Positions 13,859-64,000 of a stretch of 64,000 nucleotides of DNA are shown one piece after another; the first letter of the stretch is position 1, and every line of letters starts with the position of its first letter. The stretch is taken from positions 20,436 to 84,435 of the IMG/VR virus record IMGVR_UViG_3300040801_002714. The stretch is one strand, 5' to 3'. The position numbers were made by a program, and so were the translations under genes. This DNA comes from a virus (lineage: Duplodnaviria > Heunggongvirae > Uroviricota > Caudoviricetes). Under the pieces are notes generated by a model. That model did not search any database and was not told where the DNA came from. It worked only from the letters and a program-made list of their open reading frames with translations.

Positions 13859-13875
13859 GACCTAACCTGTCTCCG

Positions 13876-14319: not shown

Positions 14320-14328
14320 ACTGTCCCC

Positions 14329-14793
14329 TTACAAGCTCAATAAAACGCGGTCAATTTGGCCTAAAAAGTAACGACCATCTGCCTGTGGCATAGGTGTAGG
14401 CTCTATGTAATCTCGGGTTAAAACTGCCCTTAAAAAGGTAAAATTACCCACGAATGTGAACGCTTCTGTGCCCGAGTCACCTGTTGCAAGGTTCATTACC
14501 TGATCCTGACCACCTGTAGGATGCAGAGGATCCTTTGGATATGTCATGAATGGAAATTCACTACAATTGCCCCTAGCATCAATAAGATGAATCCAAAACC
14601 AATCTTCGTCCTGTGGTTCTAGTGCCAGCGTTCCCTGGATGCCAAACCCGCCAGTGAAGTTTTGATAAGTTACCTGTACAGTGTGAAGACCGTCTGTGTA
14701 CCCAAACCAGCTATCTGCTTTGATTGGCTCTCCGACTTTGTTGAAATCGTTGCCAGTATTTGTCAGCATGAGAATAGATTTTCTGGTGCTCAT
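14329..14793 (-). CDS. hypothetical structural protein
   Basis: 154 aa; GAAGG RBS; late motif 25 nt upstream. Confidence 0.5.
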   Translation of the reverse strand: MSTRKSILMLTNTGNDFNKVGEPIKADSWFGYTDGLHTVQVTYQNFTGGFGIQGTLALEPQDEDWFWIHLIDARGNCSEFPFMTYPKDPLHPTGGQDQVMNLATGDSGTEAFTFVGNFTFLRAVLTRDYIEPTPMPQADGRYFLGQIDRVLLSL

Positions 14794-16284: not shown

Positions 16285-17031
16285 ATGTCTCTTACTTTTA
16301 CTGGAAAAACTACACTTACTGGAAAAACAACACAGAGCCCTTCGGCTACTGATCCACTTATCAGTAACGTGACATCTATTGTAAAATTTCAGTCTTACCC
16401 AGGGAACACTACGTTTCAAGATAGTATTACTGATGCAGTATGGACCGGGCAAGACCAAGCTGAAATTTCAGACGTCGAAAGTAAGTTTGGAGGAAGGTCC
16501 GGAGTTACTACTGGTACTGCCACTGACGAATGGACAACACCTTATGTAAGCGGCCCATATAACTTAGCAGACAGTGATTTTTGTGTAGAGGGATGGATTT
16601 TCCCTCAGACTTCAGGTAGCACCGGACATTTGATTGGACAATGGCAAACTGCCGCTAACTTCGGTTGGAACATAAGTTATAATGATGTTTCCCAAACATA
16701 TGTAGTCGAATGGTCAACCGATGGAAATTTCTCAGCACCTAGATCGATAACTGGCACATCGAGTCTTATCAATCGAGACGAATGGACACACCTTGCGTGG
16801 GTCAGGAACGGAGCAACGGGAACTATGTATGTTAATGGAGTTGCAGATTCGACTACTATTACGTTCAGTACTGATGTTATCTTTAACAGTACTTCCGATC
16901 CACACTTAGCAGGTAGTTCGGGCCAGGGCGATTATTTTCTGGGATACATGGATGATTGGAGGGTCACGATAGGTGACCCTCGCTACATCACAAACTTTAC
17001 TCCGCCGACTCAGTCGTTTCCGGTTCGATAA
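16285..17031 (+). CDS. concanavalin A-like/LamG-domain protein, paralog of the previous gene
   Basis: 248 aa; similar N-terminus (M-x-L-x-F-x-GKT-x-L-x-G); EWTHLAWVRNG ... YMDDWRVT; 3' end overlaps the clpA 3' end by 35 nt, convergently. Confidence 0.55.
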   Translation: MSLTFTGKTTLTGKTTQSPSATDPLISNVTSIVKFQSYPGNTTFQDSITDAVWTGQDQAEISDVESKFGGRSGVTTGTATDEWTTPYVSGPYNLADSDFCVEGWIFPQTSGSTGHLIGQWQTAANFGWNISYNDVSQTYVVEWSTDGNFSAPRSITGTSSLINRDEWTHLAWVRNGATGTMYVNGVADSTTITFSTDVIFNSTSDPHLAGSSGQGDYFLGYMDDWRVTIGDPRYITNFTPPTQSFPVR

Positions 17032-38819: not shown

Positions 38820-40313
38820 CTAAATAATTCCAGCGTTCTTTCGTACTTCATCCATGGTGGTCTCTTTGACCATCTCGCCGTTTTCGTACACGGTTTCGAG
38901 TGCATATTCCCAGCCGAACTTACTTACGTACTCTTGAGCAACTTCTGTGGTCATGGTTTCGTATGCACCGGTTTGAGTGTTATACATCAGCTCAAGTCGG
39001 CCCTTTTTGCTGGCCTTGAAGCTGCTGGCCTGCTCGTCCTTTTCCCAGGTATTGGGATCGTACACAGCAGGTGCCTTGAACACTTCAACCCAATCATCGC
39101 CGTCCAGTACTGCACAGCACTTGACCGCAAACTTCTGAGTGTCACGGTTGTTCTTTTGCAGAAGTCCACCGCCCATGCCGAACGCGATGTTCGAGATGCT
39201 CCACTTTTCGTCGACCAAGCTCATCACGATTGCGTAGACATCGTGGATGTCAATGCCATCGCCCTGGATCACGCGCACATTGTTCAGCACCTTGTAGCCT
39301 TTGCTGTTCACGGTGTGCCCAAACACCTTGTCCAGTTCGCGAACAACCTGCACCGGAGTAGCAATCGGATCGCCTGAGTCCGGACGGAATACCCAGGTTG
39401 CACCACTGTCTTCCAGACGCTGCTTGAACTTGGGTGCAATCTCGCGGATGAATCGCATCCAGTCGTAGCTGTCGATCACTGTTGCAAAAATTGCACCATC
39501 TTTTGCGTAAGCATCGAACATCTGTTCCAGCAGTTGAGGTTCGCCGTCCGGGCCGTGCATAGTAGTGGTGCTGTGCTCAGAAGCCGGAATGGAGAATGCG
39601 CTCATCTCGCAGTTGTATGCAAGGTTTGCTGCCAGCACCGCAATGGTAGTGTCACTGCCCAGGAAGCTGACCAGGTGACCTGCGCCAGCAAATGCAGCAC
39701 CTTCACTTGAAGAAATACCACGTGAGCCGAAGTCGTGTAGCTTGAACGGAATCTCCGCGTAAGGATCGTCTGCAGAACGACGCAGACCTTCCAGGATGAT
39801 TTCGCGGATCGCGTAGCTCTCTGTTGCCACAGTGGTCGGGCTCCACACACGAAGCAGCTTGGCCTCGAAGTAGCTCACGATGCTGAACACACGAGGATCG
39901 TCTACTGTGCTTTCGATTGTGAACAGCACATTCTTGACCGGAATGATGCTGCCTTCTTTTGCAGCGCGAACACGGATCGGCCATTTGCCGTCGTAGTCCT
40001 CAACCACAGCACGGAGCGCAATTTCCAGATCGTCAGTGACGTTCTCCATCAGGTGTGCTCGCTGGAACTGGATGATGTTGTCCACCTGCGGGTGTGTCAG
40101 GCGCTGCAAGAAAAATTCCTTGAGCAGCATCTGCATACCAAACCACAGAACGAAATCATGTTTTCCGCCTCGGCTCTCGCCGTAGGAGATCATGCGCTTC
40201 GCACCCTTGAGGTACTGCGGAATGTGGGTCAGTTTATAACTGTCAGTATCACCTGCGATACCGTAGTTTTCACGAATTGCGGCAAGAATGCCATTTGAGT
40301 TTACAGTTGTCAT
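38820..40313 (-). CDS. nadV: nicotinamide phosphoribosyltransferase (Nampt)
   Basis: 497 aa; N-terminal DTDSYKLTHIPQY and overall collinearity with Nampt; AGAGGAG RBS. Confidence 0.9.
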   Translation of the reverse strand: MTTVNSNGILAAIRENYGIAGDTDSYKLTHIPQYLKGAKRMISYGESRGGKHDFVLWFGMQMLLKEFFLQRLTHPQVDNIIQFQRAHLMENVTDDLEIALRAVVEDYDGKWPIRVRAAKEGSIIPVKNVLFTIESTVDDPRVFSIVSYFEAKLLRVWSPTTVATESYAIREIILEGLRRSADDPYAEIPFKLHDFGSRGISSSEGAAFAGAGHLVSFLGSDTTIAVLAANLAYNCEMSAFSIPASEHSTTTMHGPDGEPQLLEQMFDAYAKDGAIFATVIDSYDWMRFIREIAPKFKQRLEDSGATWVFRPDSGDPIATPVQVVRELDKVFGHTVNSKGYKVLNNVRVIQGDGIDIHDVYAIVMSLVDEKWSISNIAFGMGGGLLQKNNRDTQKFAVKCCAVLDGDDWVEVFKAPAVYDPNTWEKDEQASSFKASKKGRLELMYNTQTGAYETMTTEVAQEYVSKFGWEYALETVYENGEMVKETTMDEVRKNAGII

Positions 40314-43538: not shown

Positions 43539-43724
43539 TTAGCCTCCGGTGACGTCCAAAAATTTGCCACATTTGGGGCAGTGCAGGCTACGAAAGGCTT
43601 TTGCTCTTTCGTTAACAACCGCCTTGCACAATTTGTCAGGGCTCTTTTTGCAGCCAGGCATAATGACTTTGAGTCTGCCTCCGGGTGCGCCAAGTCGTGT
43701 GCGAACCATGTTTCGTGAGTTCAT
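43539..43724 (-). CDS. small zinc-ribbon protein
   Basis: CKKSPDKLC...CPKCGKF; 61 aa. Confidence 0.4.
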   Translation of the reverse strand: MNSRNMVRTRLGAPGGRLKVIMPGCKKSPDKLCKAVVNERAKAFRSLHCPKCGKFLDVTGG

Positions 43725-44800
43725 TACTTTGCCCTCGCTGTCAACATGGATATTATACTGTGGTGATCTTCAAAAATCAACTCCGGCATATCCAGTGCAG
43801 TACTGATTGGGAACCACTTAGCTTCGGCTGCATCATCTGCACCTTTGACCACAGGCAGCTTGCCGTCGTCGGGTCCAGGCAGTTCAATGAGGAATGCTTG
43901 CGTGATTGTTCTACCACGCAGGCTTCTGTTGGGATGATCAAACACCTGGCTGTGAGTGATGTTTGCGTCTAGGACCTTGGGCGGAACTTTCAGCTTGGTC
44001 TCTTCGCGCAGCTCGCGCAAGCAACTCACACGCCCAGTTTCGTTCGGGTCAATGTAACCACCAGGCAGTGCCCACAGACCTTTGCCCGGCGCAGCCTTGC
44101 GTCGAATCAGCAACACATGACCGCCTTGCAGGACAACGGCGTCTACAGTATTCAGCGTGACAGGGTAAGGACTGTCTTTCCACTGTTCTTGATACTTGCG
44201 TATGAACTGATACTCTTCGACAATTCGTTTCCACTCGCCAGTGTCGTATCTATTCTCCAAGATCCAGTCAAACACTACCCTGGGCATTACACTGCGCACA
44301 AACGTGATCTTGTTTTCAAACATCAGCTGGCGAATCTGGGTAGCGTCGATCGGGTGCTCGCCCACTTCGATGAACTTGCCCGAGTCCAGAAAATCGTAGC
44401 TCGGAAACCAACGAAGGTAAAACGTGCTTTCGTCCTTTTCGTGCCCGACGATAACAACACTGTCCTCTAGGTTGTTGAAACCTACACAACGAGTGATTGC
44501 AGTTTGTACCTGGGTGACCCACTTGTTGTCTTCGTAGAGAAAGTCACGAGCAGGGCGGATGTGAAGGCCCAAATTCGGATTGAACCTGTCCATGTGATCA
44601 CGAACAGCGATCTCAATCATCTGCTTGCGTTCATCAAACGTAAATGGATTCTTTGGGGTGCGTGGTTGATCTGCGGATCCTACCAGTACCAAGACTTCGT
44701 CTGCTTGGCTGTAGGCTTTTTCGATCAAGGACATGTGTCCTAGGTGGAAAGGCTGGAATCGTCCAATAACGACCGCCAGACTGTATGGCTTTTGCGACAT
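43724..44800 (-). CDS. nadM: bifunctional NMN adenylyltransferase/Nudix hydrolase (NadM/NatV-like)
   Basis: N-terminal VIGRFQPFHLGH (archaeal-type NMNAT HxGH); C-terminal Nudix box GLWALPGGYIDPNETGRVSCLRELREETKL. Confidence 0.9.
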   Translation of the reverse strand: MSQKPYSLAVVIGRFQPFHLGHMSLIEKAYSQADEVLVLVGSADQPRTPKNPFTFDERKQMIEIAVRDHMDRFNPNLGLHIRPARDFLYEDNKWVTQVQTAITRCVGFNNLEDSVVIVGHEKDESTFYLRWFPSYDFLDSGKFIEVGEHPIDATQIRQLMFENKITFVRSVMPRVVFDWILENRYDTGEWKRIVEEYQFIRKYQEQWKDSPYPVTLNTVDAVVLQGGHVLLIRRKAAPGKGLWALPGGYIDPNETGRVSCLRELREETKLKVPPKVLDANITHSQVFDHPNRSLRGRTITQAFLIELPGPDDGKLPVVKGADDAAEAKWFPISTALDMPELIFEDHHSIISMLTARAK

Positions 44801-48988: not shown

Positions 48989-50224
48989 TTACCCTTTTAC
49001 GCACATTACTTGCTTGAGAGTGTGCACAACATCCACGAGGTCAGTTTGTGCTGCCATTACCGCATCGATATCTTTGTATGCACCCGGTGTCTCGTCGAGC
49101 ACGCCAATGTCTTTACGGCACTCAACGCCCTGTGTCGCACGTTCGTGGTCTTCCACAGTAAATGCCTGCTTGGCCTTTGAACGGCTCATGGTACGACCTG
49201 CACCGTGTGAGCATGAACAGAATGAATCTGCGTTGCCTTTGCCTCGCACAATGTATGACTTCGCACCCATTGAGCCAGGAATGATTCCGTAGTCACCGAA
49301 ACGAGCACGTACTGCACCTTTACGAGTCACATGCACATTTGCACCAAAGTGGTTCTCCATCTCCACATAGTTGTGGTGACAGTTGATTGCTTCTTTGGTG
49401 ATAGTGAACTGTGGCAAATGGCGACGAAGTGCTACCAATGCCAGTTCCATCATGGCCTGACGGTTACGACGAGCGTAATCCTGTGCCCAGCCCACTGCTT
49501 CGACGTAAGCATCGTATGGCTCGGTGCCCTGCACCAAGTAACCGAGGTCACGGTTTGGCAACTGAATGAAATGTCGTTCACAGTACTCTTTGGCTGCTTC
49601 AATAAAGTAGCGACCAATGCCGTTGCCGATGCCACGTGATCCAGAATGCAGCATTACCCACACATCGTTGTTCTCGTCCAAGCACAACTCAACGAAGTGG
49701 TTACCTCCGCCAAGTGTACCGACCTGGTGATAAATTTTGTCGTCAGGGTTTCGAACAGTGTGCTCGAGTGCAGGTGTACGTGCTACCAAACGTTCCCAGC
49801 CAGATTTGATCTGCTTGTTCTGATTGTTCAGCATTTTCACTGTGTCACGGTGATCACGGTGCCCCAGGCTTGAGCGAGTGTGCTCAGCTTGTCCAACAGG
49901 AATCATGCGCTCGACAGAATTTCGAACGTTATGAAGGGAATCTGGGAGGTCATCAGCAGTCAGGCTCAAACGCAGGGCGTTCATGCCACAGCCAATATCA
50001 ACACCCACCGCGGAAGGAATGATTGCGCCTTTGGTTGCAATCACAGATCCTACTGTTGCACCTTTGCCTAGGTGTACATCAGGCATCACTGCAACATGCT
50101 TGTGAATAAAGGGCAGGCTGGCGATATCTCGCAGCTGATCCATTGCGGCTGATTCCACAGGGACACCCTTGGTCCACATCTTAACCAATGCGTTCGATGA
50201 CTGAATGATGTTGATATTTGACAT
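48989..50224 (-). CDS. rtcB: RNA-splicing ligase RtcB
   Basis: 411 aa; CSCSHGAGR, HHNY and metal-binding His/Cys pattern collinear with RtcB. Confidence 0.9.
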   Translation of the reverse strand: MSNINIIQSSNALVKMWTKGVPVESAAMDQLRDIASLPFIHKHVAVMPDVHLGKGATVGSVIATKGAIIPSAVGVDIGCGMNALRLSLTADDLPDSLHNVRNSVERMIPVGQAEHTRSSLGHRDHRDTVKMLNNQNKQIKSGWERLVARTPALEHTVRNPDDKIYHQVGTLGGGNHFVELCLDENNDVWVMLHSGSRGIGNGIGRYFIEAAKEYCERHFIQLPNRDLGYLVQGTEPYDAYVEAVGWAQDYARRNRQAMMELALVALRRHLPQFTITKEAINCHHNYVEMENHFGANVHVTRKGAVRARFGDYGIIPGSMGAKSYIVRGKGNADSFCSCSHGAGRTMSRSKAKQAFTVEDHERATQGVECRKDIGVLDETPGAYKDIDAVMAAQTDLVDVVHTLKQVMCVKG

Positions 50225-50302: not shown

Positions 50303-50944
50303 CTAATACCTGATAGGACGCTCTCTTTCTAGCATTTCATCGGCGCTAACTCGCTTTCCGATCAGTGTCATAAACAGCACATCGCTAGTTTCGATCCTGA
50401 TTTCTTTAGGCTTCTTGGTAATTTTCTGGTTAGCAAATTGCTGTTGTCTGGACTCACGTATACGATAGCGACTGAAATTGTCTTTGGCAAATCTTCTCAT
50501 TGCGAGATCGTGCAGACCGTTAAATCCGAAAAGATCATACGTGATGTGATTTTTGGTCTTTTCTACTTCGAACAGAAAGTCTCCGTGGCACCACATGTAA
50601 AGGTCTTCTTCGATAAACTCTGGCTTAACAACATATGAAGGATCAGGAACTTTCTCTGTTTTTAGACTCTTTCTTTTTCTTCTGTACCATGAGTCCCAGG
50701 CGTGATGAGGAGAAGTGTCACACAGTGCTTCTGCGTATTCATACCTGGACGTTGGGTCCATTTCAAGCATCAGTTTTGCAAGGTCGTGTGAGTACACCGG
50801 AACTGTCTTGATGTCTGTCTTGCATTTCTTGTTGACTGAAAATGCGCGAAGCTCAAGATCGATTCCGTAAAGAAGATAGCTCAGGAAGTCTCTTGCACGA
50901 GAATTTCCTAAGCCAATCTTTATTGTGTCTCGATAAGAAGTCAT
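50303..50944 (-). CDS. hypothetical protein
   Basis: 213-aa ORF. Confidence 0.5.
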   Translation of the reverse strand: MTSYRDTIKIGLGNSRARDFLSYLLYGIDLELRAFSVNKKCKTDIKTVPVYSHDLAKLMLEMDPTSRYEYAEALCDTSPHHAWDSWYRRKRKSLKTEKVPDPSYVVKPEFIEEDLYMWCHGDFLFEVEKTKNHITYDLFGFNGLHDLAMRRFAKDNFSRYRIRESRQQQFANQKITKKPKEIRIETSDVLFMTLIGKRVSADEMLERERPIRY

Positions 50945-51993
50945 TACGAGTTACCGATGCCGATTTTCCTTTCCGAATCCGTAGAGGCCGGCTTAGTGTT
51001 AATCATAGACTTAAGCCTTTTCACAGTTTCGTCAAAATCTTTGCCTAGGCACTCTACACTCACAATCAGTTCCTTCATGTGTGCTACAGAGAAGCCTTCA
51101 GTTGATTCAACCCACAGATCCAGTTTGTCCGGATCCTCGACCAGCTTGCTGTGTTTAGCAGTTAGGAACACACGGCGACACAGCTCGTCCGGCATACCAA
51201 CGTGAATGACTTCATCAAAGCGGCTTGGGCGACTGGTTATGCGCTTGTCCAGCTTTTCCGGATAGTTAGTTGTAGCGACAAACACAATGTTGTCTACTTG
51301 CAATTCGCCATCCAGCATGGCAAGGATATCGCTTTCGCCCCATGTGGTCACAATTGAGTCAATGTCTTCCATGATCATTACGATTGGACGACTGGGCTCA
51401 ATGGTGCGAAGGATACGCAGACCTTCTGCATCATAATCTGGTCTGGAGCAATATATGGATATACCTCCCAGGTTAACGATTTGCTGACTCAGTCTTTGCA
51501 CACATGAAGTTTTACCAGAGCCGGGCGGGCCATACAGCAGCACACCCCTTTTCCAGAGGAAACCGAAGTCTCGGAAGTACTGTTCTCTTTTCCAGAATTC
51601 AGCGATGCCTTCTAGTACCCTCTCAGTGCTACCGTCTGGAAGTTCGATGAGAGAATCCAGGTTCACCTGCTTCTTGGTAAAGTAGTAACCGATGTTTTGA
51701 TTCCACTGCACAATGTACTGGCCAGGAGGCAGATTGTCTACTGCCCTTTCACAAGCCGCATAGTTTTCACCCTGAGCGGACCACATACGACCTGTGTTTT
51801 TGGTCATATCGTATTCGCTAATGGTGGGATCATCCTCTACGCATGGTGCTACTTCACAAGAATCTTCTGCTTGTGAGCCTGCAACAGCATGGAAACTTTC
51901 GTAATCGTCGCTCATTCTTCTTTTGGTCCTATGAGGCTGGTTAATAGGCATTCCTGTTCTAGGATTAACTTTTCTGTTACGTCTCCTAATCAC
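50944..51993 (-). CDS. classical AAA-family ATPase
   Basis: Walker A LLYGPPGSGKT, Walker B IMEDID, second region of homology TTNYPEKLDKRITSRPSRFD. Confidence 0.8.
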   Translation of the reverse strand: MIRRRNRKVNPRTGMPINQPHRTKRRMSDDYESFHAVAGSQAEDSCEVAPCVEDDPTISEYDMTKNTGRMWSAQGENYAACERAVDNLPPGQYIVQWNQNIGYYFTKKQVNLDSLIELPDGSTERVLEGIAEFWKREQYFRDFGFLWKRGVLLYGPPGSGKTSCVQRLSQQIVNLGGISIYCSRPDYDAEGLRILRTIEPSRPIVMIMEDIDSIVTTWGESDILAMLDGELQVDNIVFVATTNYPEKLDKRITSRPSRFDEVIHVGMPDELCRRVFLTAKHSKLVEDPDKLDLWVESTEGFSVAHMKELIVSVECLGKDFDETVKRLKSMINTKPASTDSERKIGIGNS

Positions 51994-52406
51994 AGGTCGC
52001 CGTCTTTACGGTTCTCCGAATAAAATGCATCAAACTCTCCACCTGGGTAACGAGCCTTCAGCTTCTCAATGTTCTCTAGGATAACATCTACTGGATCAAT
52101 GTTCAAGGCCATACATGCCTGTGCCCAATACCAGATAATGTCACCTAATTCGCGCTTGAGGTGAAAAATGTTTTCGTCGTTGACCGGCTTACCCTGGAAT
52201 AGCATTTTCTTGAGAACTTCGTCGAATTCGCCAGATTCGCTTGCAAGTCCCACGCCGCCTGTTAAGTATCTTGGAACGTTGATTCCTGCAGCATGTAATT
52301 CTCTCACACGATCGATAAACGTCTCGATGTCTTTGCTTTCGTCACTGGTTACAGTATCGACAAACCGAGAATAGTTTGCCATAAATTGTCTTGCTTCGTT
52401 TTCCAT
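51990..52406 (-). CDS. mazG: MazG-like nucleotide pyrophosphohydrolase
   Basis: 138 aa; ELGDIIWYWAQ...LENIEKL, an all-alpha NTP-PPase pattern. Confidence 0.7.
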   Translation of the reverse strand: MENEARQFMANYSRFVDTVTSDESKDIETFIDRVRELHAAGINVPRYLTGGVGLASESGEFDEVLKKMLFQGKPVNDENIFHLKRELGDIIWYWAQACMALNIDPVDVILENIEKLKARYPGGEFDAFYSENRKDGDL

Positions 52407-53336: not shown

Positions 53337-53365
53337 AGTTTACTGTTTTGATAAGATTTTGTCAA
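53337..53365 (-). promoter_or_regulatory. sigma70-like promoter TTGACA-N17-TAAACT
   Basis: Reverse complement of 53337-53365; the -35 overlaps the dCMP deaminase stop codon. Confidence 0.4.
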
Positions 53366-53964
53366 TCTTCCCACTCAACCGTTCTGACGGTTACTCTAGC
53401 TTCATCAATCATTGTGGTAACACAGTCATCTAAGTGATAATGAGTGCCTGTACCTTTGCCAGCAAAGGGAATATTAGGTCCTACGATTTCAATTATGCCT
53501 GCTTGAATAAATGCTCTGGTGCAATCTGCACAGGGAATGGGTTCCCAGTTCAAGTAAGCAGTACATCCCTTGAGACTAACGCCGACTCTTGCAGCATTAT
53601 AGACTGCGTTTCTTTCGGCGTGTTCTACCCACTTGTATTTTACTCCGCCCTCTCTGCTCCAGCGCTCAGGATCGACTTCTGTTTCACTTTCCACAACAGT
53701 CTCGATCTTGATGGGTTTGGCCTGAGGTATTGAACCGTCTGTGGTAATACCCCCAACGTTTAATTCAATTTCTTCAAGTCCGTCAACTAGCGCCATTTCT
53801 CTGACACCACGAGGAAATCCGTTGAAGCCTAGGCTTCGAACTTCTTTGTCTGGCCCTACAATCACACAGCCGACTTTGGTACTGGGGTCTTTAGATTTTT
53901 CTGCAACTAACATGGCCTGACGAATAAAGAATTCGTCCCAGCCTTTTTGACTCTGGGTGCTCAT
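53362..53964 (-). CDS. cd: dCMP deaminase
   Basis: HAERNA...PCADC zinc-binding deaminase motifs; 200 aa. Confidence 0.85.
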   Translation of the reverse strand: MSTQSQKGWDEFFIRQAMLVAEKSKDPSTKVGCVIVGPDKEVRSLGFNGFPRGVREMALVDGLEEIELNVGGITTDGSIPQAKPIKIETVVESETEVDPERWSREGGVKYKWVEHAERNAVYNAARVGVSLKGCTAYLNWEPIPCADCTRAFIQAGIIEIVGPNIPFAGKGTGTHYHLDDCVTTMIDEARVTVRTVEWED

Positions 53965-55474: not shown

Positions 55475-56074
55475 TTATCTCATGTCAGCGATTTGGTCAG
55501 CGAGGCCAATTTCGATGGTTTCTTTTGCACTCATGAACGTGTCACGATCAAGCAGCTCGACCATCTGCTCTCTGGTCACTTTCGGATTCGAACAGTGCTC
55601 CATATAGAGGTCGGTCATGATGTCTTTGGTCTTGTTGAACTCGTCCATGTGTCTCTGCATATCTGACACAGTGCCAGATGTTCCTGCAGAAGGTTGGTGA
55701 ATCATGGTTCTTGCTCTCGGCAGCATATAGCGATGCCCGGGCTCTCCGCCACTGTGCAAGAAGCTACCCATTGAACAGGCTTGACCCAAGCAGAAAGTAT
55801 GAACTGGACTTTTGATGTACTTCATCACATCGTAAATTGCCAGTCCGTCAGTAACAGATCCACCCGGGCTGTTAATGTAGAAGTTGATCGGCTTGTCTGG
55901 ATTTTCTGCTTCCAAGAATAGCATAGATGCTACTAGACGATCTGCTTTGGTCTCCTCAACAACGCCTGTTAAGAACACCACACGTTCTACCATCAATCGA
56001 CTGTAAATGTCGAATGCACGTTCGCCGCGAGCAGTCTGCTCAACTACCATTGGGACAAGATTACTGTTTTGCAT
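55475..56074 (-). CDS. clpP: ATP-dependent Clp protease proteolytic subunit ClpP
   Basis: 199 aa, near-collinear with E. coli ClpP; catalytic Ser (GQACSMGS), His (MIHQP) and Asp (DRDTFMSA); AAAGGAA RBS. Confidence 0.93.
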
Positions 56075-56106
56075 TTATCGTTCCTTTATGTGATAAATAG
56101 TTGTAT

Positions 56107-56488
56107 GAAGATTAAAGACATCCTATCAGAAAGTAGTGCACCACTAGTTGCTCAATATCACCGCGGCGTCGACGAAGACTTCGACTCATACTTTAATCCT
56201 CAAGCTGCGATGATAGCAGAACTAAACCGAGAACACTACAAAAAATACTTTTCAGATTTCGATCTAACTGGAATTGTTCCCGTATTTGAAAAAGATGACG
56301 GATTCCACGACCCCGAAGCCGAATCCTGGGACAATAAGCCGATTGAAGGTGATCCACAGAGCGCCGGGTATAGAGGACAACAAAATGCGCTTCATCGAGC
56401 AGGTCTGCCACACGATGAAAATGTCCAAAGGTATAATGTCCGCGCATTTAACTATGATCTCTCTTACGATCTAAACAGTTCGGGCTAA
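56107..56488 (+). CDS. hypothetical protein (plus-strand moron)
   Basis: The ORF track starts at 56069; the Met at 56107 (MKIKDIL) is likelier; GATAAATAG motif 10 nt upstream. Confidence 0.4.
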
Positions 56489-56685
56489 TAGCCACGAACT
56501 TTTTCTAATTCTGCAAGCGCCTGTTTAATGTCTTTGTCTGCTTCTTGATATTCTTTTGGGCATCGAGCTTCAAGCAGTTTAGCTAGACTCCTGTAATACT
56601 CTAACTCTTCTACAGCGGCGCCTGGGTTATCGTAGTAAAAATTGAGTTCATCATTCTCGATAAGTGTTAGCTGAGGGGCTGACAT
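56485..56685 (-). CDS. hypothetical protein
   Basis: 66-aa ORF. Confidence 0.35.
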   Translation of the reverse strand: MSAPQLTLIENDELNFYYDNPGAAVEELEYYRSLAKLLEARCPKEYQEADKDIKQALAELEKVRGY

Positions 56686-57007: not shown

Positions 57008-57790
57008 CTAGTCCATGATTTTCTCGAGAGCTGCGGCTACACTTGCTGCAAAGTCAGGATCGTAATTGTCCTTGTCTTCGTTCAGTGAGTCCATGTTCTC
57101 CAGCGCCCACATCCAATAGTCTAAGGGCACACTCTCGAGGGGTTTACCTTTGTGTTTGCCAAATGGCATAGTATCATAAATAATAGGCTCTTGCAACCAT
57201 TGCAGAACCTGACTCATGTAAGGCTTATCTTTGTCGATAATTGTAAGCTCTTCCATTTTATCTATGCAGTATTCTAACAGGTGTGCTGTTACCAGTGCGT
57301 CGGAGTCTGCTCTGTGGTGTTCAATTTTGTGATCTGCAGGATCCAGTATATCAAAACGATATCTCAGGTACGGTAGCTTGAAGTTGGTCACAGTAGGGTC
57401 GCCGCCAAACAGTTTTTGGCTCATACGCATGGTGCAAATCCAAACCGGGTAATCAATGCCGTAACGTTGCAGGACATTTTCGTCATAGAAACTGTTATGA
57501 GCAACACACACAGCTTCTCCGCCAAATGCATCTAAAAACTCTTTCACGTTGTCAGTGAAATCTTCGAAGTGCGAACAGCGTTCGACCATTTTGTTTGTGA
57601 TGTTTGTTATAGACGAAACTTCAGCAGAGATCGGTTCGTATGGCTTAAACAACTCACCGAACGTAATCCAACTGTCGCCGTCCATGAATGCTCTGCCCAG
57701 TTCAATCACTTCGGCAACTTTGTAATCTAGGTCAGTAGTTTCTGTGTCTATTACAACACAGTTCTTTAAAAATTCATCTCTATGAGACAT
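57008..57790 (-). CDS. DEDD 3'-5' exonuclease (DnaQ/epsilon-like)
   Basis: Exo I VIDTETTDL; Exo II region CVAHNSFYDENVL; Exo III HRADSDALVTAHLL. Confidence 0.7.
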   Translation of the reverse strand: MSHRDEFLKNCVVIDTETTDLDYKVAEVIELGRAFMDGDSWITFGELFKPYEPISAEVSSITNITNKMVERCSHFEDFTDNVKEFLDAFGGEAVCVAHNSFYDENVLQRYGIDYPVWICTMRMSQKLFGGDPTVTNFKLPYLRYRFDILDPADHKIEHHRADSDALVTAHLLEYCIDKMEELTIIDKDKPYMSQVLQWLQEPIIYDTMPFGKHKGKPLESVPLDYWMWALENMDSLNEDKDNYDPDFAASVAAALEKIMD

Positions 57791-57852
57791 GAGGAGTTCC
57801 TCAGTTATTGTTGTATGTGGATTATAACAGAAATTGACTGTTAGGTCTACGA

Positions 57853-59355
57853 TTAATCGTAGTCTAAGTCAAGGGTTATCGAAGTTGAAAAATCGTCTAG
57901 CTTCTTATCGTTTTCGTCTATGCTGGCTAGATCAACTTCATAGCCCCATAGTCGCTTCATGTGGAAGATACAGTCCATTGCGTCCTCTTCTTCCAGTAAT
58001 TCTCCGTTCACTACATGGTGCACTAGCTCGAGTGTTCTAGTAGTTTTAATGTTTGAGTTAACTACCTGGATGTTTGGATCTTGATTTCCTACCTCATACT
58101 GGTCAGCAAGGGTGCTGCGTATTTTTCGATAGCCATCTCGATTGTGTATTGAACGAACTTCGTAAAAATCTTCTTCGGAGTTATTGTTAATCGAGAACAT
58201 TCTCATGTCTCTCATCAGCTTAGGACTAAGGAACTGTCTAACAAAGCTCTCGTCTCTGTAATTTTCGACAGCATGTTTGATAACTTCGATGTGATTTTCG
58301 CCTGCGATGTCGGGGAACCACTCGCGATCTTCTTTGGTAGGATCTTTACAGATGCGCTCAATGTCTCTAAACATGTTAAGACCTAACGCATAGGGGTTAA
58401 AATGCCCCATTTGTGTGTAATCTCCTTGCCATACCACGTTGCTGTGTACGTGTTTAAACTCTAGCATGGCACCTTCGGAAATTAGCCCTTTATCGTACAA
58501 TCTCTCCAGCATATAACAGTGAACCCAGCAAGCAAAACCTTCGTTCATTACCTTGGTTTGACGCTGCGGATAAAAGTACTGCGATATCATTCTCACAATA
58601 CGAATGATTTCTCTTTGCCATGTTTCTAAACTTGGGCTGTTCTTTTCAATAAACTTGAGAATATTCTCTTCGGGCTCAGGCGGAAAGTTCTTTTCTTTTT
58701 TCTTCTTACGTTCTTTGGCAGTTTCTTGCCACAGCACATTGACCTGGCTCTGTATGTATTCTTCGCGTTCTTTCTGCCTGTTCTTTTCTTCCATGATGCT
58801 GAGCTTGCTAGGCTTCTTGTAACGATCGATACCTTGGTTACGAAGCGCATGGGCACTGTCTATGATTCTCTCAACTTCGTGATAGCCGTATCTTTCTTCG
58901 CATTCAGCAATATAGTTTTTTGCAAATAGAAGATAGTCGATAATAGAGTCTGCTTTAGTCCACTCTTTGAACAGATAATTGTTTTTAAAGAAGTGATTGT
59001 GTCCGAAACCTGCGTGGGCAATTACCAAGGCCTGAATAGTGGCGGAGTTTTCCTCCATGAGATAGTTAATACAAGGATTTGAATTAATTACTAGCTCGTA
59101 TGCTAGGCCACTTTTTCCAGATCTGTATTTCTGTTCTTCGCCCACAAACACTTTACCGAAGCTCCAGTGATTATATCCTACTGGCATGCCGACGCTAGCA
59201 TATGCATCTAGCATCTGTGTGCTGGTAATCACTTCGAACTGATTTGGATAACAGTTAAGGCCTAGCTCTTCGTCTGCAATTTCTGCACATGCATCAGCCA
59301 CACGTTCGATAGTTTCGAACGACCAATCAGAATCTTCGAACAGTAGTTTACTCAC
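57853..59355 (-). CDS. spoVR: SpoVR/YcgB-family protein
   Basis: 500 aa; YPNQFEVITSTQMLDAYASVGMP and LAYELVINSNPCINYLMEEN collinear with E. coli YcgB; start overlaps the yeaH stop (ATGA). Confidence 0.88.
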   Translation of the reverse strand: MSKLLFEDSDWSFETIERVADACAEIADEELGLNCYPNQFEVITSTQMLDAYASVGMPVGYNHWSFGKVFVGEEQKYRSGKSGLAYELVINSNPCINYLMEENSATIQALVIAHAGFGHNHFFKNNYLFKEWTKADSIIDYLLFAKNYIAECEERYGYHEVERIIDSAHALRNQGIDRYKKPSKLSIMEEKNRQKEREEYIQSQVNVLWQETAKERKKKKEKNFPPEPEENILKFIEKNSPSLETWQREIIRIVRMISQYFYPQRQTKVMNEGFACWVHCYMLERLYDKGLISEGAMLEFKHVHSNVVWQGDYTQMGHFNPYALGLNMFRDIERICKDPTKEDREWFPDIAGENHIEVIKHAVENYRDESFVRQFLSPKLMRDMRMFSINNNSEEDFYEVRSIHNRDGYRKIRSTLADQYEVGNQDPNIQVVNSNIKTTRTLELVHHVVNGELLEEEDAMDCIFHMKRLWGYEVDLASIDENDKKLDDFSTSITLDLDYD

Positions 59356-60659
59356 GCATCTTCCTTCTTAAACAATTCTCTAAACACACCATATACTTCT
59401 TCGGGCTGATCTACCTGGGCTGTTGCTAGGTTGCTGTGGTGTGCCTTTAGTGATTTATATATCGGCCATATGCCAAACTCTTGCCCACCGTACCACATGC
59501 CACGCATCTCATTCATTCCATTTACTTCAATGTATGCAAAGAACTGACACATTGGCAATATGGTCTTGTCTAATATTTGAGTAAGTGGCTGGTTGTCATT
59601 CATGAAGTTGTCGCCGTCTGACGCCTGGGCACAATATATGTTCCATTCGTTTTCGTCGTAGCGTTCTTTTTGAATTTTGTACATTAGCTCGAAACCTGAA
59701 CTAACCACTGTGCCACCACTTTCTCTGCTATGGAAAAATTCTTCTTCTGTGCATTCTGTTGCGCGGCTGTGATGGCGAATAAAAACAACATCAACCTGAT
59801 CATATTTGTATTCCAAGAACAAATAAAGCAGTAGGTAGAATCTTTTTGCTAGATCCTTTTCGTGTTCGCCCATACTTGCAGAAACATCCATTACACAGAA
59901 CATAACTGCTTTGTGTTTTGGCTTCGGTACGTTTTCGTAGTTGCGATAACGCAGGTCAATTGGATCAAGAAAAGGAATGTTGCCTGACTTACGGCGTAGT
60001 GTTGCTAATTCTTTTTCTAGTTCTTCGATTTCTGTCTTTTGCTTTGCAGTCGGATTCTTTACTGCATAAAGCTCTTCCAGGAGCTCTTTGATTTCTCGAA
60101 TACGTCTTAGTTTAGGACGCTTGAGTGCGATGCGTCTGCCTATGCTATTCTTCATTGAACGAAGAAGGTCGAGGTTTGCAGGAGTGCCGTCGTTCACAAA
60201 CCCCGCCCTAGTCTTCGTAAAAGAAACAGACTCTTTTTGTGTTTTCTTTTTGAGATTAGGAAGCTCTAATCCTTCGAACAATATGTCGTTGAATTCGTCT
60301 TTGCTAATTGGGAAGGTAAAACTATCTTCTCCTTCCCCATCTGGTGAACCCTGCTTACCACCACTTCCTTCGCCTCCCTGGGGCTTCTCGATTAGGTCAC
60401 CCGGAACAAACTCTTTGTTGCCAGGAAGCACAAAATCTTTATTGCCTGTTTTATGATTGTGACGGAAAGTCGGTTCGTGTGTGCCGTCCGACACAGGCAC
60501 ATTGACGTCTTGATCGTCACTGGAAGTGATAGAACGATCTAGCAGACCGTCCTTGACACTTTTCCTTAGCTGCTCCTTTGCTCTTTTTAAAAATCTCTGT
60601 CTGTTTCCTAGATTTTTTCCGCTTGGGTTCAGCCTTCTATCAATAATAGAATGCGACAT
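59352..60659 (-). CDS. yeaH: YeaH/YhbH (DUF444) protein
   Basis: IDRRLNPSGKN..NRQRFL.R, Gly-rich loop KPQGGEGSGG, VMFCVMDVSASMG, WNIY.AQASDGDN; start at the Met at 60659, which overlaps the prkA stop (TAATG). Confidence 0.88.
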   Translation of the reverse strand: MSHSIIDRRLNPSGKNLGNRQRFLKRAKEQLRKSVKDGLLDRSITSSDDQDVNVPVSDGTHEPTFRHNHKTGNKDFVLPGNKEFVPGDLIEKPQGGEGSGGKQGSPDGEGEDSFTFPISKDEFNDILFEGLELPNLKKKTQKESVSFTKTRAGFVNDGTPANLDLLRSMKNSIGRRIALKRPKLRRIREIKELLEELYAVKNPTAKQKTEIEELEKELATLRRKSGNIPFLDPIDLRYRNYENVPKPKHKAVMFCVMDVSASMGEHEKDLAKRFYLLLYLFLEYKYDQVDVVFIRHHSRATECTEEEFFHSRESGGTVVSSGFELMYKIQKERYDENEWNIYCAQASDGDNFMNDNQPLTQILDKTILPMCQFFAYIEVNGMNEMRGMWYGGQEFGIWPIYKSLKAHHSNLATAQVDQPEEVYGVFRELFKKEDA

Positions 60660-62596
60660 TAAGATTTTTGTACTCGGGTAAACCATTCAACGAGTCGTCT
60701 AGTCTGACGCTCGCTGTATCCTTTGGCTAGCATACGATCAACAAACTCATCGTGCTTTTCCTGGTCCTTAGAGCTCGACTTAGTTCCAAAGCTAATTACA
60801 GGCAATAGCTCTTCTGTGTTCGAGAACATACGTTTTTCGATAACTTCGCGTAGTTTTTCGTAACTGGTCCAGCTAGGATTTTCTCCGCCGTTGTTTGCTC
60901 TTGCACGAAGAACAAACTGCACCACTTCACCTCGGAAATCTTTAGGATTTGCAATGCTAGCAGGCTTCTCGATTTTCTCTAGCTCGGAGTTAAGAATTTC
61001 TCTGTCGAACATTTGCCCAGTGTCTGGGTCGCGATAGTCAGTATCCTGGCACCAAGCATCTGCATACTCAACGTAACGATCGAATAGGTTCTGGCCATAT
61101 TCACCGTAGCTTTCTAGGTATGCTTTTTGAATCTCATAACCAATAAAGTCTTTGTATTCTTCGGTCATGTATTCTTTGATTAGCTCAAGATACTTGTCTT
61201 CGATTTCGTCTGGCATTTGTTCTTGGCGAATTGCCTGTTCCAGGATATACATCATGTGCACTGGATCAGCAGCCACTTCTTCTGGATCGAAGTTGAATGT
61301 TTGAGATAGCACTTTGAACGCGAAACGAGTGCTCATGCCGTTCATGCCTTCGTCAACGCCTGCTTCTTCTTTGTATTCGTGCAGGGTGCGCGCCTTAGGA
61401 TCTTTGTCCTTAAGATTTTCACCATTGTACACAAGCATCTTGCTTACTGCGTTCGAGTTCTTGTGCTCTTTCAGTCTTGTTAGCACAGAGAAGTCTGCCA
61501 ACAGCTCAAGTGTCTTAGGTGCAAGCGGTGCATTGCCCAGTGAGCTATCGCGAATCATCTTCTTGTAAATGTTTACTTCTTCGTCTCTGCGCAAGCAGTA
61601 AGGAACTTTAACAATGTAAATTCTATCTAAGAATGCTTCGTTGTTTTTGTTGTTGCGGAATGTTGTCCACTCACTTTCGTTTGAGTGTGCAAGAACAATA
61701 CCCTGGAATGGGATTGCACCTAGTCCTTCTTCGGTACCGTTGTAGTTGCTTTCTTGTGTTGCAGTTAGTAGAGGGTGAAGCACTTTGATCGGCGCCTTAA
61801 ACATCTCTACGAATTCCATCAAACCTTGGTTAGCGTGACACAGTCCTCCAGAGAAGCTGTATGCATCTGGATCGTTTTGACTGAAATCTTCTAGCTGACG
61901 AATGTCAACCTTACCTACAAGTGAACTAATATCCTGGTTGTTATCGTCGCCTGGTTCTGTTTTAGAAATTGCAATTTGGTTGAGCTTGCTTGGCCACATC
62001 TTAACTACGCTGAACTGACTTACATCGTTGCCGAAGTCTCTCAGTCTTTTTAGTGCCCACGGACTAGGAATAAGATTTTGTAGGTAACGACGAGAAACAC
62101 CGTACTCGTCTTCTAATAGATCTTTGTATTTTTCTTCTGCAAAAAGACCAAGTGGACTTTCAAACACAGGGCTAATTTCGTCGCCTGCCTTTAGTACATA
62201 AATGGGCTGTAGCTCCATTAGTGCTTTAAGTCTTTCTGCAAGACTGGACTTAGCAGAACCAACCGGACCTAGCAAATACAGTACCTGTTTCTTTTCTTCT
62301 AATCCTTGTGCTGCATGTCGGAAAAAACTAACGATGCGCTCAATGGTATCTTCCATACCGTAGAAGTCTTCGAATGCTTCGTACTGCTTGATTGTTCTGT
62401 TTTGGAAAATTCGGGAAAGTTTTGGATCTTTTGAGGTGTCTACAGTTTTAGGTTCACCAATTGCTGCAACCATACGCTCTGCAGGACTAGCGTAAGTAAG
62501 AGGATCCGCTTTACAAAGAGCAAAGTACTCCTCTAAAGACATTTCTTCTTGTTTGCGTTTATCTTGTTCACTCGAAAATAAGTCAAACAATTCCAT
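60659..62596 (-). CDS. prkA: PrkA/YeaG serine protein kinase (AAA-like N-domain plus kinase domain)
   Basis: 645 aa, collinear with E. coli YeaG from the N-terminus (AERM.AAIGEP..VDT...P.LSRIF.NR.I..Y.AFE.FYGMED.IE.IVSF..HAAQGLEEKKQ.LYLLGPVG..KSSLAERLK). Confidence 0.93.
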   Translation of the reverse strand: MELFDLFSSEQDKRKQEEMSLEEYFALCKADPLTYASPAERMVAAIGEPKTVDTSKDPKLSRIFQNRTIKQYEAFEDFYGMEDTIERIVSFFRHAAQGLEEKKQVLYLLGPVGSAKSSLAERLKALMELQPIYVLKAGDEISPVFESPLGLFAEEKYKDLLEDEYGVSRRYLQNLIPSPWALKRLRDFGNDVSQFSVVKMWPSKLNQIAISKTEPGDDNNQDISSLVGKVDIRQLEDFSQNDPDAYSFSGGLCHANQGLMEFVEMFKAPIKVLHPLLTATQESNYNGTEEGLGAIPFQGIVLAHSNESEWTTFRNNKNNEAFLDRIYIVKVPYCLRRDEEVNIYKKMIRDSSLGNAPLAPKTLELLADFSVLTRLKEHKNSNAVSKMLVYNGENLKDKDPKARTLHEYKEEAGVDEGMNGMSTRFAFKVLSQTFNFDPEEVAADPVHMMYILEQAIRQEQMPDEIEDKYLELIKEYMTEEYKDFIGYEIQKAYLESYGEYGQNLFDRYVEYADAWCQDTDYRDPDTGQMFDREILNSELEKIEKPASIANPKDFRGEVVQFVLRARANNGGENPSWTSYEKLREVIEKRMFSNTEELLPVISFGTKSSSKDQEKHDEFVDRMLAKGYSERQTRRLVEWFTRVQKS

Positions 62597-62674
62597 GTGT
62601 GTGCACTCCTTGAATTATTATACTACTACTTATTCCTTTTGCAGGAACAGGAGACGGTTAAAAGAACTGAAACT

Positions 62675-62703
62675 ATTATATGACGAAACTCAGAGAAAGT
62701 CAA
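62675..62703 (-). promoter_or_regulatory. consensus sigma70 promoter TTGACT-N17-TATAAT for the prkA operon
   Basis: Reverse complement reads TTGACT, a 17-nt spacer, then TATAAT; about 70-nt leader with AAGGAG RBS before the ATG at 62596. Confidence 0.6.
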
Positions 62704-62715
62704 TGAAAATTAGTC

Positions 62716-62748
62716 AGAAAAATGCCGGAGTTTTTAGGCCCCGGCATT
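62716..62748 (-). terminator. rho-independent terminator
   Basis: AATGCCGG followed by a 12-nt loop then CCGGCATT; the minus strand then reads TTTTCTG; lies between the acidic-protein gene and the prkA promoter. Confidence 0.6.
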
Positions 62749-62754
62749 CTGTGA

Positions 62755-64000
62755 TTAACCGTTTAAGGCTTTTAGTACCTTGAGTACGTCAGGATCAGCA
62801 CTCTCGTTCATAGACTTTTTAATAGCCTTATCACGTGAGCCTTTCCATTCGTCTTCGCTGCTTTCGATCTCTCCGTCACCGTCGTAATCTTTGTCAGCTT
62901 TTTCGCCTTCGTACATGCCTTCGTTAGACATTACCATTCTGTCATGAATGCGTTTGAGCAGCTTAGGACTCATGCCAACTAGATCATCCATGTCGTAGTA
63001 TTTGTCTCCGCCAAGACCCAAGTCTTGCATGTGAAGAATTGCACCAATTACACCTGACATTTCGTCCGATGCGTCTCTTGCACTAGCCGGTTCAATATCT
63101 AAGTCCATGTCAGGAGCAGCACGGTCTGTTGACGCTACGTCGTCCATGTCAATGTCTACCATTGCATCTGGATCTTCGTCGTCTAGGTCGTACACTTCTG
63201 GATCGTCTTCAGCCGGAACTTCTTCCATTTCGTCGTCGTCTTCAGCAATTGGGCTACAAGAAAGTGGGCTCTCTTCGCCGTCTTCGTTCTCGCCGTCGCA
63301 ATCAGCATCTTCGTCGAAATAGTCAGCTTCGAACACATCGTATTCATCGTCGCCTTCTGCTAGATCATAAACTGCATCGTATACTTCGTTCTCTTCGATA
63401 GCTGCTTCGTCGCAACCTTCTTTGGTGTCCGGGAAGCATTTGTCGCAATCGTAGCTACCGCAGTCGCAGTCTTTGTCTTCCTCAACTGTTTCCTTGTTTC
63501 CGAGCTCGTCGTTGAGACCTTTCTCAATAACACTCATCCACTTTTCTAAATCTTCCATCGGTGATTCCCCATGTTCTACGTCAATTCTATTATCTTCCAC
63601 CTGTGACATAGGTGAAAGTGACCCGTCATTATCTGTGTTCATGAACTGGTCGCTTATTCTTTCTTCAGGTGCAGCAGTCACATATTCGATTGGATAGCTT
63701 TGCTCTTGACTGTCTACGTTACATACTGCGCTTTTACCATCTAGTGCATATGCAACAAACACGCCGTATCCTTCGCCGTTACCTGCTCCGTAGAGATTGT
63801 CAATTTTAACCATTTCACCAGGCTGTAGATCTGGCTTATCTGGCAAGTAATGATTATCTCCGTCTACTTCTGCATATCGCTGTTCTTCTGTATTGCCTGC
63901 ATAGTAGCTATCGCCTGGGTCTGCAAATGCTTCCAGGCTGTCTAAACGAAATTCTTGAGGTTCGCCTTTGATGTTTACAATGCAGGTGCCACGGCCGGGC
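62755..64000 (-). CDS. extremely acidic Asp/Glu-rich protein, partial (5' end beyond window)
   Basis: The reading frame stays open to the window edge upstream of the TTG at 63846; C-terminal half is over 40% Asp/Glu with Cys clusters (CDCGSYDCDKC). Confidence 0.6.
   Translation of the reverse strand, partial: PGRGTCIVNIKGEPQEFRLDSLEAFADPGDSYYAGNTEEQRYAEVDGDNHYLPDKPDLQPGEMVKIDNLYGAGNGEGYGVFVAYALDGKSAVCNVDSQEQSYPIEYVTAAPEERISDQFMNTDNDGSLSPMSQVEDNRIDVEHGESPMEDLEKWMSVIEKGLNDELGNKETVEEDKDCDCGSYDCDKCFPDTKEGCDEAAIEENEVYDAVYDLAEGDDEYDVFEADYFDEDADCDGENEDGEESPLSCSPIAEDDDEMEEVPAEDDPEVYDLDDEDPDAMVDIDMDDVASTDRAAPDMDLDIEPASARDASDEMSGVIGAILHMQDLGLGGDKYYDMDDLVGMSPKLLKRIHDRMVMSNEGMYEGEKADKDYDGDGEIESSEDEWKGSRDKAIKKSMNESADPDVLKVLKALNG

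Follow-up and report, generated by a model that had tools for sequence, protein, structure and literature searches.

A complete prkA-yeaH-spoVR module in an uncultivated jumbo-phage lineage, placed behind a host-type sigma70 promoter

Here, we identified a complete set of the genes prkA (yeaG), yeaH (yhbH, DUF444) and spoVR (ycgB) on the minus strand of a 64,000-nucleotide stretch of DNA from a virus of the Caudoviricetes (IMG/VR record IMGVR_UViG_3300040801_002714, positions 20,436 to 84,435; hereafter the window). It is rather probable that this trio represents a host-derived module that an uncultivated lineage of jumbo myoviruses acquired and fixed in the distant past. We also favour, with moderate confidence, the reading that it forms a functional operon of host origin that has been rewired to the host sigma70 and whose products remodel proteins or quiesce the metabolism of the host. 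Few gene sets that lack an agreed biochemical function are conserved as widely in bacteria and archaea as yeaG/yeaH/ycgB, which has been linked with sporulation, nitrogen starvation, quiescence and the recovery of growth.

The three genes are adjacent on one strand in the order prkA-yeaH-spoVR (Table 1), which is the conserved bacterial operon layout. In most bacteria prkA, the DUF444 gene and spoVR form one operon, and the order was kept in nearly all of the 160 comparison loci that offered enough room. An earlier note, made from the letters of the window, had taken the products for full-length homologs of PrkA, DUF444 and SpoVR, and profile searches against Pfam and NCBIfam bore this out by placing all three above the curated cut-offs. 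PrkA matched AAA_PrkA (PF08298; 1e-166, 554.8 bits) and PrkA_C (PF06798; 4e-69, 233.5 bits), both with cut-offs of 25, as well as the NCBIfam model NF011999 (PRK15455; 1163.7 bits, cut-off 576), which spanned residues 1-645 of 645. YeaH matched DUF444 (PF04285; 1e-156, 522.7 bits, cut-off 27) and NF003707 (PRK05325.1-2; 564.4 bits, cut-off 396), and its score against the Firmicute sporulation-type YhbH model TIGR02877 (235 bits) was below the cut-off of 468. SpoVR matched PF04293 (SpoVR; 4e-165, 549.9 bits), PF24755 (SpoVR_C; 4.5e-15, 55.8 bits) and NF008737 (PRK11767; 754.2 bits, cut-off 679). Judged by these profiles, the trio consists of full-length members of the proteobacterial YeaG/YeaH/YcgB equivalog families. 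The family-invariant residues were all retained in PrkA, YeaH and SpoVR, and the loss of catalytic residues that the earlier note had considered was not seen in any of them; the phage trio is probably functional. Start codons were confirmed by Joint Genome Institute (JGI) gene calls with 100% identical products, because their lengths are the same as ours (645, 435 and 500 amino acids, aa). A longer yeaH open reading frame (ORF) of 444 aa, beginning at 60686, was rejected, as both homologues and the JGI call favour the start within TAATG.

Residence of the trio in phages is indicated by its relatives. In a protein search, PrkA was matched with 100% identity on a JGI contig of 97 kb, and about 20 further clusters were 71-81% identical to it; the identity to bacterial PrkA levelled off at 67-70% in Alpha-, Beta- and Gammaproteobacteria. 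Conserved synteny around the trio was seen in at least eight related jumbo-phage contigs, which are metagenomic and come from different samples; the related contigs comprise L167-L172 (33-223 kb) and the IMG/VR contigs L003/L004 and L045. The layout in most of them is DNA ligase, one or two large ORFs, prkA, yeaH, spoVR, RNase_T exonuclease, ClpP and MazG, and the same trio order with exonuclease, ClpP and MazG as neighbours was observed in L003/L004, L045, L167, L168 and L169/L170. Among the seven contigs that extend past spoVR, six have the exonuclease downstream of the trio (L003, L004, L045, L167, L168 and L169), directly after it in four cases. In L171 (223 kb), the trio is present, the exonuclease and ClpP neighbours are absent and DNA ligase lies downstream. 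Still further upstream, L168 and L172 carry genes for ClpX, ribosomal protein S21, HSP20 and ClpS, of which L167 and L169 have subsets.

Between the window and L003, the trio (PrkA 77%, YeaH 59-66% and SpoVR 58-70% identity) is better conserved than its neighbours (ClpP 52%, MazG 55% and exonuclease 48%). Its codon usage correlates with that of the other window genes (r = 0.95), and its GC content is 42.6% versus 45.5%. Selection was judged by invariant columns and by conservation relative to the neighbours, synonymous sites being saturated at 60-80% amino-acid identity. Taken together, synteny, codon usage, relative conservation and the P-loop variant described below point to an old acquisition kept under purifying selection. 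A neighbour-joining tree built from 143 PrkA sequences placed the window in one clade with L004 and L045; the tree gives no donor lineage, the outgroup being distant, the phage branches long and the bacterial identities at a plateau. Our survey of IMG/VR yielded 136 PrkA relatives, most of which share only the trio with the window and have a GG P-loop. Since many of them probably stem from flanking host DNA or from mis-called contigs, most were not taken to be phage-borne; further genes are shared only with L003/L004, L045 and, more loosely, L064, L080 and L082.

The second line of evidence comes from the transcription signals. A sigma70-type promoter that matches the consensus at 11 of 12 positions lies upstream of prkA, as the earlier note had pointed out, and 78 nucleotides (nt) separate the end of its -10 hexamer from the prkA ATG. 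Sites scoring at least 9/12 occurred at chance level in the 9-kb surroundings (13 versus 14.7 expected), so this match alone could be due to chance, but three controls argue otherwise, and conservation in related phages strengthens the claim. The 64-kb window contains 11 sites of at least 11/12, against 1.13 +/- 1.06 expected from Markov-shuffled sequence, and all of them are on the minus strand, which bears nearly all window genes. The region upstream of prkA in the related phage contigs could not be aligned as DNA, and yet promoters were present there (12/12 in L003, L168 and L172, 11/12 in L167 and L169), with scores of 11-12/12 in six of the eight phage clade members. At 79 bacterial prkA loci, the best sigma70 score within 250 nt upstream never exceeded 10/12. 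In E. coli, the promoters of yeaGH depend on RpoS and on NtrC/RpoN (PMC4664914, PMC10954441), in contrast to the consensus sigma70 promoter of the window; no sigma54-like element was seen upstream of the window trio, and stress control of the bacterial type was not found in the window. The number of strong coding-strand sites suggests that this jumbo phage relies heavily on the host sigma70 RNA polymerase. The -35 elements of the 11 sites start at 62703, 55048, 54977, 38816, 35781, 33929, 27320, 25218, 20554, 6915 and 3600. Most of these sites are just upstream of gene starts, and the one at 55048-55021 has an extended -10 and matches the consensus at all 12 positions.

An intrinsic terminator ahead of this promoter, which had also been claimed, was present: its hairpin folds at -20.3 kcal/mol (z = -4.85), and none of 200 shuffled sequences folded as well. 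It starts 5 nt past the stop codon of an upstream acidic ORF and was overlooked by the pattern scan; reading and folding of the sequence supplied it. In L003 and L167 as well, terminator-like hairpins were recognized by eye immediately ahead of the promoter. On the other side, no terminator was found in the 62-nt gap after spoVR, where a promoter-like element is followed by the gene for an RNase_T/DnaQ-like exonuclease. The unit is thus insulated on the upstream side only, and the description of it as an insulated unit has to be restricted accordingly; the exonuclease is possibly co-transcribed with the trio. The early expression and the lytic lifestyle given in the earlier note are inferences. 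A structured 5' leader or riboswitch was considered and rejected (z = -0.18).

Gene junctions within the trio are tight. The prkA stop codon and the yeaH ATG share one base (TAATG, 60661-60657), exactly as the earlier note had read them, and no Shine-Dalgarno sequence was found ahead of the yeaH ATG, which fits coupling by termination and reinitiation. The second junction had been given as ATGA at 59352-59355; it is actually GTGA (59355-59352), and spoVR starts with GTG. This GTG overlaps the yeaH stop codon and has AAGGAAG 4 nt upstream (59366-59360). Stoichiometric co-expression, which had been deduced from the overlaps, does not follow from them, since an overlap implies coupling and not stoichiometry. 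The exact 4-nt yeaH-spoVR overlap was also present in 15 of 77 bacterial loci and is inherited from bacteria; the stop-start overlap of prkA and yeaH was observed at none of 80 bacterial loci. In the 182-kb related phage contig L167, a 502-aa DUF7487 gene (13268-14776) is inserted between yeaH and spoVR, indicating that the trio tolerates interruption in at least one relative.

With regard to PrkA, the Walker A motif is GPVGSAKSS (codons 110-118, ~62243-62269), in which K116 and S117 are invariant among 40 sequences; E264 is located in the segment EFVEMFK, invariant in the same set, and about 270 invariant columns are kept. K428 is invariant as well and aligns with K426 of enterobacterial and E. 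coli YeaG, where K426A has been used as a 'catalytic' mutant (PMC10954441). The P-loop GPVG-SA-KSS is common to the phage clade (L001, L003, L045 and clusters P0003-P0034) and to the Ralstonia phage RsoM2USA, and a TA variant was found in the Thermus phage phiYS40 and in P0013. In contrast, all 80 bacterial species representatives have GGGKSS (GGGKS in E. coli and other bacteria versus GSAKS in the window). By this comparison, the SA P-loop would be a signature of the phage lineage in the ATP-binding loop. A solved family member, PDB 9xip (also 9xiq and 9xir), matched at 5.6e-50 and has an identical GSAKS P-loop, so a protein with this variant can fold and presumably also work; our literature search found no paper for PDB 9xip. 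Inside prkA, an antisense 84-aa ORF (Table 1) matches almost every comparison locus, which we attribute to the very strong conservation of PrkA and do not take as evidence for a gene.

For YeaH, the AlphaFold2 model (predicted local distance difference test, pLDDT, 73) begins with a disordered region of about 120 residues, continues with long helices and ends in a vWA domain. Its MIDAS motif DxSxS...T...D is intact, with D258, S260, S262, T317 and D348 all invariant, and Foldseek matched the model to vWA domains (E = 3e-6, probability 1.00), including those of NorD from the NorQD complex and the MDN1 MIDAS domain. The SpoVR model reached a pLDDT of 79.5 and a predicted template modelling score (pTM) of 0.80, and more than 100 invariant columns are kept. 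Two invariant motifs, HAxxGH (H114, H119) and NEGxA (E272), are on confidently modelled helices. The latter follows the former by about 150 residues and resembles the NEGFA motif of gluzincins. However, the zincin motif HExxH is absent from SpoVR, which has HAxxGH instead, with Ala replacing the catalytic Glu. A Foldseek search against PDB, a profile hmmsearch against PDB and hhalign against E. coli PepN were all without match, and we found no paper that ties SpoVR to metallopeptidases. A zincin-like fold of SpoVR is thus a lead, not a finding. The FtsH/YME1-type zinc metalloproteases differ in the same respect, as they have HExxH where the trio has HAxxGH, and the trio consists of separate polypeptides without a membrane anchor; a similarity of fold to this type was unconfirmed by Foldseek or sequence profiles. 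By alignment, H119 corresponds to H127 of E. coli YcgB, and an H127Y change rose to 64% frequency in one experimentally evolved E. coli line (PMC10044975), which is anecdotal.

The window as a whole is phage DNA by its gene content, from a distant relative of jumbo myoviruses. It encodes baseplate-wedge-like and tail proteins, a head-decoration-like protein and a DNA polymerase (PolB) of the T4-type family (phrog_262), whose best matches, at 40-43%, were from the jumbo phages Phosso and Atu_ph07, a Vibrio jumbo phage and the 121Q/Rak2 group. No DNA-level match of the region was found among 50,697 phage records, and relatives were recognized at the protein level only. The earlier designation as a T4-like phage fits loosely through the T4-family PolB; it does not fit T4 proper, given the PolB identities of 40-43% to jumbo phages and the T4 late-promoter motif TATAAATA, which has 0 occurrences in the 64 kb. 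A T4-type late promoter was rejected on the latter ground.

Among the same 50,697 records, a PrkA homologue was present in 17 (~0.03%), namely RsoM2USA, four huge phages, 11 Thermus phage records and Enterobacter phage LAU1, the last of which has yeaGH without ycgB and merely as host flank. The trio is rare among phages but recurs in large ones. RsoM2USA is a 344-kb Ralstonia jumbo myovirus with a latent period of 270 min (PMC8504454), in which the complete trio is encoded in the same order (ORF30-ORF29-ORF28) with the 4-nt yeaH/spoVR overlap and the SA P-loop, and which has further genes in common with the window (w43724, NadR-like, and w54293). It differs in its identity to the window (58%, 38% and 51%) and in an upstream sigma70 score of just 8/12. 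Its genome paper lists PrkA and SpoVR, the latter filed under replication and repair (PMC8504454), and its GenBank record labels all three proteins as hypothetical. The Thermus phages phiYS40/TMA (YS40_056-059), phiLo, MN1 and Lalka also carry a serine kinase and SpoVR with an adjacent DUF444-like gene, and the phiYS40 record of 2006 already named YS40_057 as SpoVR and YS40_059 as serine kinase. However, identities are 25-29%, the hosts are Deinococcota and the gene order differs (DUF444-like, SpoVR, an unannotated 617-aa ORF, serine kinase). The huge phages (595-642 kb; LR745206, LR756502, LR756504 and LR756511) possess PrkA at 61-64% identity as well as YeaH and SpoVR, but have a GG-type P-loop, and their records are unannotated. 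In LR756502, spoVR is about 245 kb away from prkA-yeaH; in LR756504, inserts (about 1.4 and 1.9 kb long) lie between the trio genes, and SpoVR is matched in two pieces.

The occurrence of the trio in a phage is thus not new, as it is also seen in RsoM2USA, phiYS40/TMA and the huge phages. The statement of the earlier note that the role in phages is not established agrees with our literature search, which turned up no functional study. Because the genes were already annotated in RsoM2USA and Thermus phages, the present case is incremental and not new in kind; what it adds is the clade-wide conservation, the rewiring of the promoter and a structural hint on how the trio may work. Fixation in a jumbo-phage clade would mean that manipulating the pathway of the trio pays off for the virus, and the phage trio may offer a compact, constitutively expressed version for biochemistry and the search for substrates. 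It also adds to the picture of giant phages that carry their own toolkits for proteostasis and host physiology.

What is known of the bacterial module gives some indication of a role. The families and domain order are the same in E. coli yeaG-yeaH plus ycgB, with the window proteins being 66% identical to enterobacterial YeaG and 53% to E. coli YcgB. The three genes show the tightest mutual cofitness in six species (10.1101/072470). When cells are starved of nitrogen, the bacterial module contributes to the quiescence of their metabolism; it also favours survival over long periods, and the small RNA SdsR must turn it down for timely regrowth (PMC4664914, PMC10954441). Under the reading that we favour, the host sigma70 RNA polymerase would transcribe the phage operon upon DNA entry, probably early, and expression from such a promoter would bypass the RpoS and NtrC/RpoN starvation control. 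Ribosomes ending prkA would reinitiate on yeaH at TAATG and then on spoVR at GTGA. The three proteins might act as one machine that remodels or degrades specific proteins, with PrkA as AAA+ motor, YeaH as vWA/MIDAS adaptor by analogy with MoxR-vWA pairs such as NorQ/NorD, and SpoVR as a partner with a possible zincin-like fold. The phage would most likely impose or tune a starvation-quiescence state in this way, so that nutrient-poor hosts stay productive through a long jumbo-phage infection. MoxR-type AAA+/vWA-MIDAS pairs (NorQ-NorD, RavA-ViaA and CbbQ-CbbO, as well as Rea1/MDN1) resemble the trio in having an AAA+ gene followed by a vWA-MIDAS gene. They differ in that PrkA is a family of its own with an extra C-terminal domain, was placed in AAA+ clade III (PMC13001217) and has an obligate third partner, SpoVR.

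A bolder version, which we put forward only tentatively and consider unlikely at present, is that of a split ATP-driven remodelling or proteolytic machine (AAA+ motor, vWA/MIDAS adaptor and zincin-fold subunit) that a whole jumbo-phage lineage captured, put under a constitutive host sigma70 promoter beside its own Clp system, and uses to force or steer the starvation quiescence of the host in the course of long infections. If true, the phage copies would be a regulation-free and self-contained version of a module whose biochemistry in bacteria has resisted about 30 years of study, and they would open a direct route to its substrates.

Several points weigh against a functional and beneficial phage operon. 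In the closest relative, represented by the contigs L003 and L004 (99.95% identical to each other), one inserted C before GGC breaks the frame in both yeaH and spoVR. The insertions (at 10176-10186 and 11585-11592 of L003, ccaCggcaat and tttCggccat, and also in L004) leave prkA and the neighbouring genes intact, and the parts past them are stop-free and conserved. They could stem from a systematic error in sequencing or from a pseudogenisation that happened very recently, or be something stranger; if they are real, the trio would be dispensable there. Two clade members, L045 and L171, are without a strong promoter, and quiescing the host metabolism seems counter-productive for a virus. Moreover, the biochemical activity of PrkA is contested. 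Kinase activity was ascribed to PrkA/YeaG (PMC4664914), no kinase activity was found for B. subtilis PrkA and an ATP-dependent protease activity was claimed instead (PMC9512850), and neither was detectable in highly purified B. anthracis PrkA, which was described as a clade III AAA+ ATPase like YME1/FtsH (PMC13001217). K116 and K428 were kept, but the kinase active site invoked earlier is a mistaken framing, and the label of kinase is unsafe (PMC9512850, PMC13001217).

Among other explanations, the trio might serve the phage's own proteins, as a chaperone that assembles, matures or quality-controls phage complexes beside the ClpP, ClpA-like, ClpX, ClpS and HSP20 proteins of the phages. MoxR-vWA systems mature enzymes, NorD and the MDN1 MIDAS domain are similar to the vWA domain of YeaH, and throughout the clade the trio is found in one block with genes for phage Clp and HSP20 proteins; PrkA is also an AAA+ protein (PMC13001217). 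We nevertheless consider this rather unlikely, as the proteins are near-equivalogs without phage-specific domains (PrkA 67-70% identical to the bacterial ones), which suggests that they have the same conserved cellular targets, and PrkA scored 17 bits against the MoxR-type AAA_5 family, below the cut-off of 22.

Less likely again is an antagonistic role, in which the phage copy counteracts or pre-empts a host dormancy that is refractory to phages, for instance by competing with or mis-timing the host YeaG/YeaH/YcgB. Such a role would be in line with the promotion of quiescence and a longer lag by host yeaGH (PMC10954441, PMC4664914), with the change of the clade P-loop from GG to SA and with an expression from sigma70 that is uncoupled from starvation signals. 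On the other hand, a poison subunit would need one gene, yet three were kept with every invariant residue, and the SA P-loop also occurs in the solved structure 9xip.

A counter-defence or superinfection-exclusion module is very improbable. Early jumbo-phage genes of unknown function are often of this kind, and a point mutation in yeaG underwent a sweep in one line of E. coli resistant to T7 (PMC10044975), again an anecdotal observation; but no defence-system model of PADLOC was matched by any of the three proteins, and the bacterial module is a conserved stress operon of housekeeping type that is not linked to defence islands. Finally, the idea of passenger DNA without a role in the phage (from recent horizontal transfer, a chimeric assembly or flanking host sequence), which the proteobacterial-like identity of PrkA (67-70% to many), the host-flank yeaGH of LAU1 and the many trio-only IMG/VR matches might suggest, is hardly credible in view of the synteny in the related phage contigs from different samples, the fully ameliorated codon usage, the clade's own P-loop variant and promoter, and the rank of the trio as the best-conserved genes shared with L003.

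Table 1. Features of the trio and its surroundings in the window
Feature	Position	Strand	Remarks
prkA/yeaG	60659-62596	-	645 aa, ATG start; AAA+ ATPase domain and PrkA C-terminal domain
yeaH/yhbH (DUF444)	59352-60659	-	435 aa, ATG start
spoVR/ycgB	57853-59355	-	500 aa, GTG start
Sigma70-type promoter TTGACT-N17-TATAAT	62675-62703	-	11/12; -35 at 62703-62698, -10 at 62680-62675
Intrinsic terminator	62714-62750	-	12-bp hairpin 62750-62719 with GC core GCCGGGG/CUCCGGC, then U5
5' leader	62597-62674	-	about 70 nt; Shine-Dalgarno AAGGAG at 62611-62606, 8-9 nt before the prkA ATG
Promoter-like element TAGACC-N17-TGtTATAAT	57821-57849	-	10/12, extended -10 TG; in the 62-nt gap after spoVR
RNase_T/DnaQ-like exonuclease	57008-57790	-	260 aa, RNase_T 5.5e-15
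Antisense ORF inside prkA	61314-61568	+	84 aa
Acidic ORF upstream of the trio	62755-63846	-	363 aa, listed TTG start
ORF between exonuclease and ClpP	56069-56488	+	139 aa
Gene converging with the preceding ORF	56485-56685	-	
ClpP	55475-56074	-	
ClpA-like double-AAA+ unfoldase	16997-19267	-	756 aa; Clp_N, AAA, AAA_2, ClpB_D2-small
Nicotinamide phosphoribosyltransferase (NAMPT)	38820-40313	-	
NadR-like cytidylyltransferase(NMNAT)-Nudix fusion	43724-44800	-	

Among the neighbours of the trio, the upstream ORF is extremely acidic (D/E-rich) and has no Pfam match, and large unannotated ORFs occupy its position in related phages. Downstream, a plus-strand ORF converges on a minus-strand gene with a 4-nt overlap and separates the run of trio and exonuclease from ClpP; it is on the opposite strand in L003/L004 too (45% identity). 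ClpP and the ClpA-like unfoldase of the window, together with ClpX, ClpS, HSP20 and S21 of its relatives, make up a phage-borne proteostasis toolkit. Clustered downstream of ClpP on the minus strand are genes for an RtcB RNA ligase (48989-50224), a single-domain AAA ATPase (50944-51993), a MazG-like pyrophosphohydrolase (51990-52406) and a dCMP deaminase (53362-53964). The window also encodes an NAD+ salvage pair, consisting of NAMPT and the NadR-like fusion protein, homologues of which were found in RsoM2USA and in the IMG/VR contig L064.

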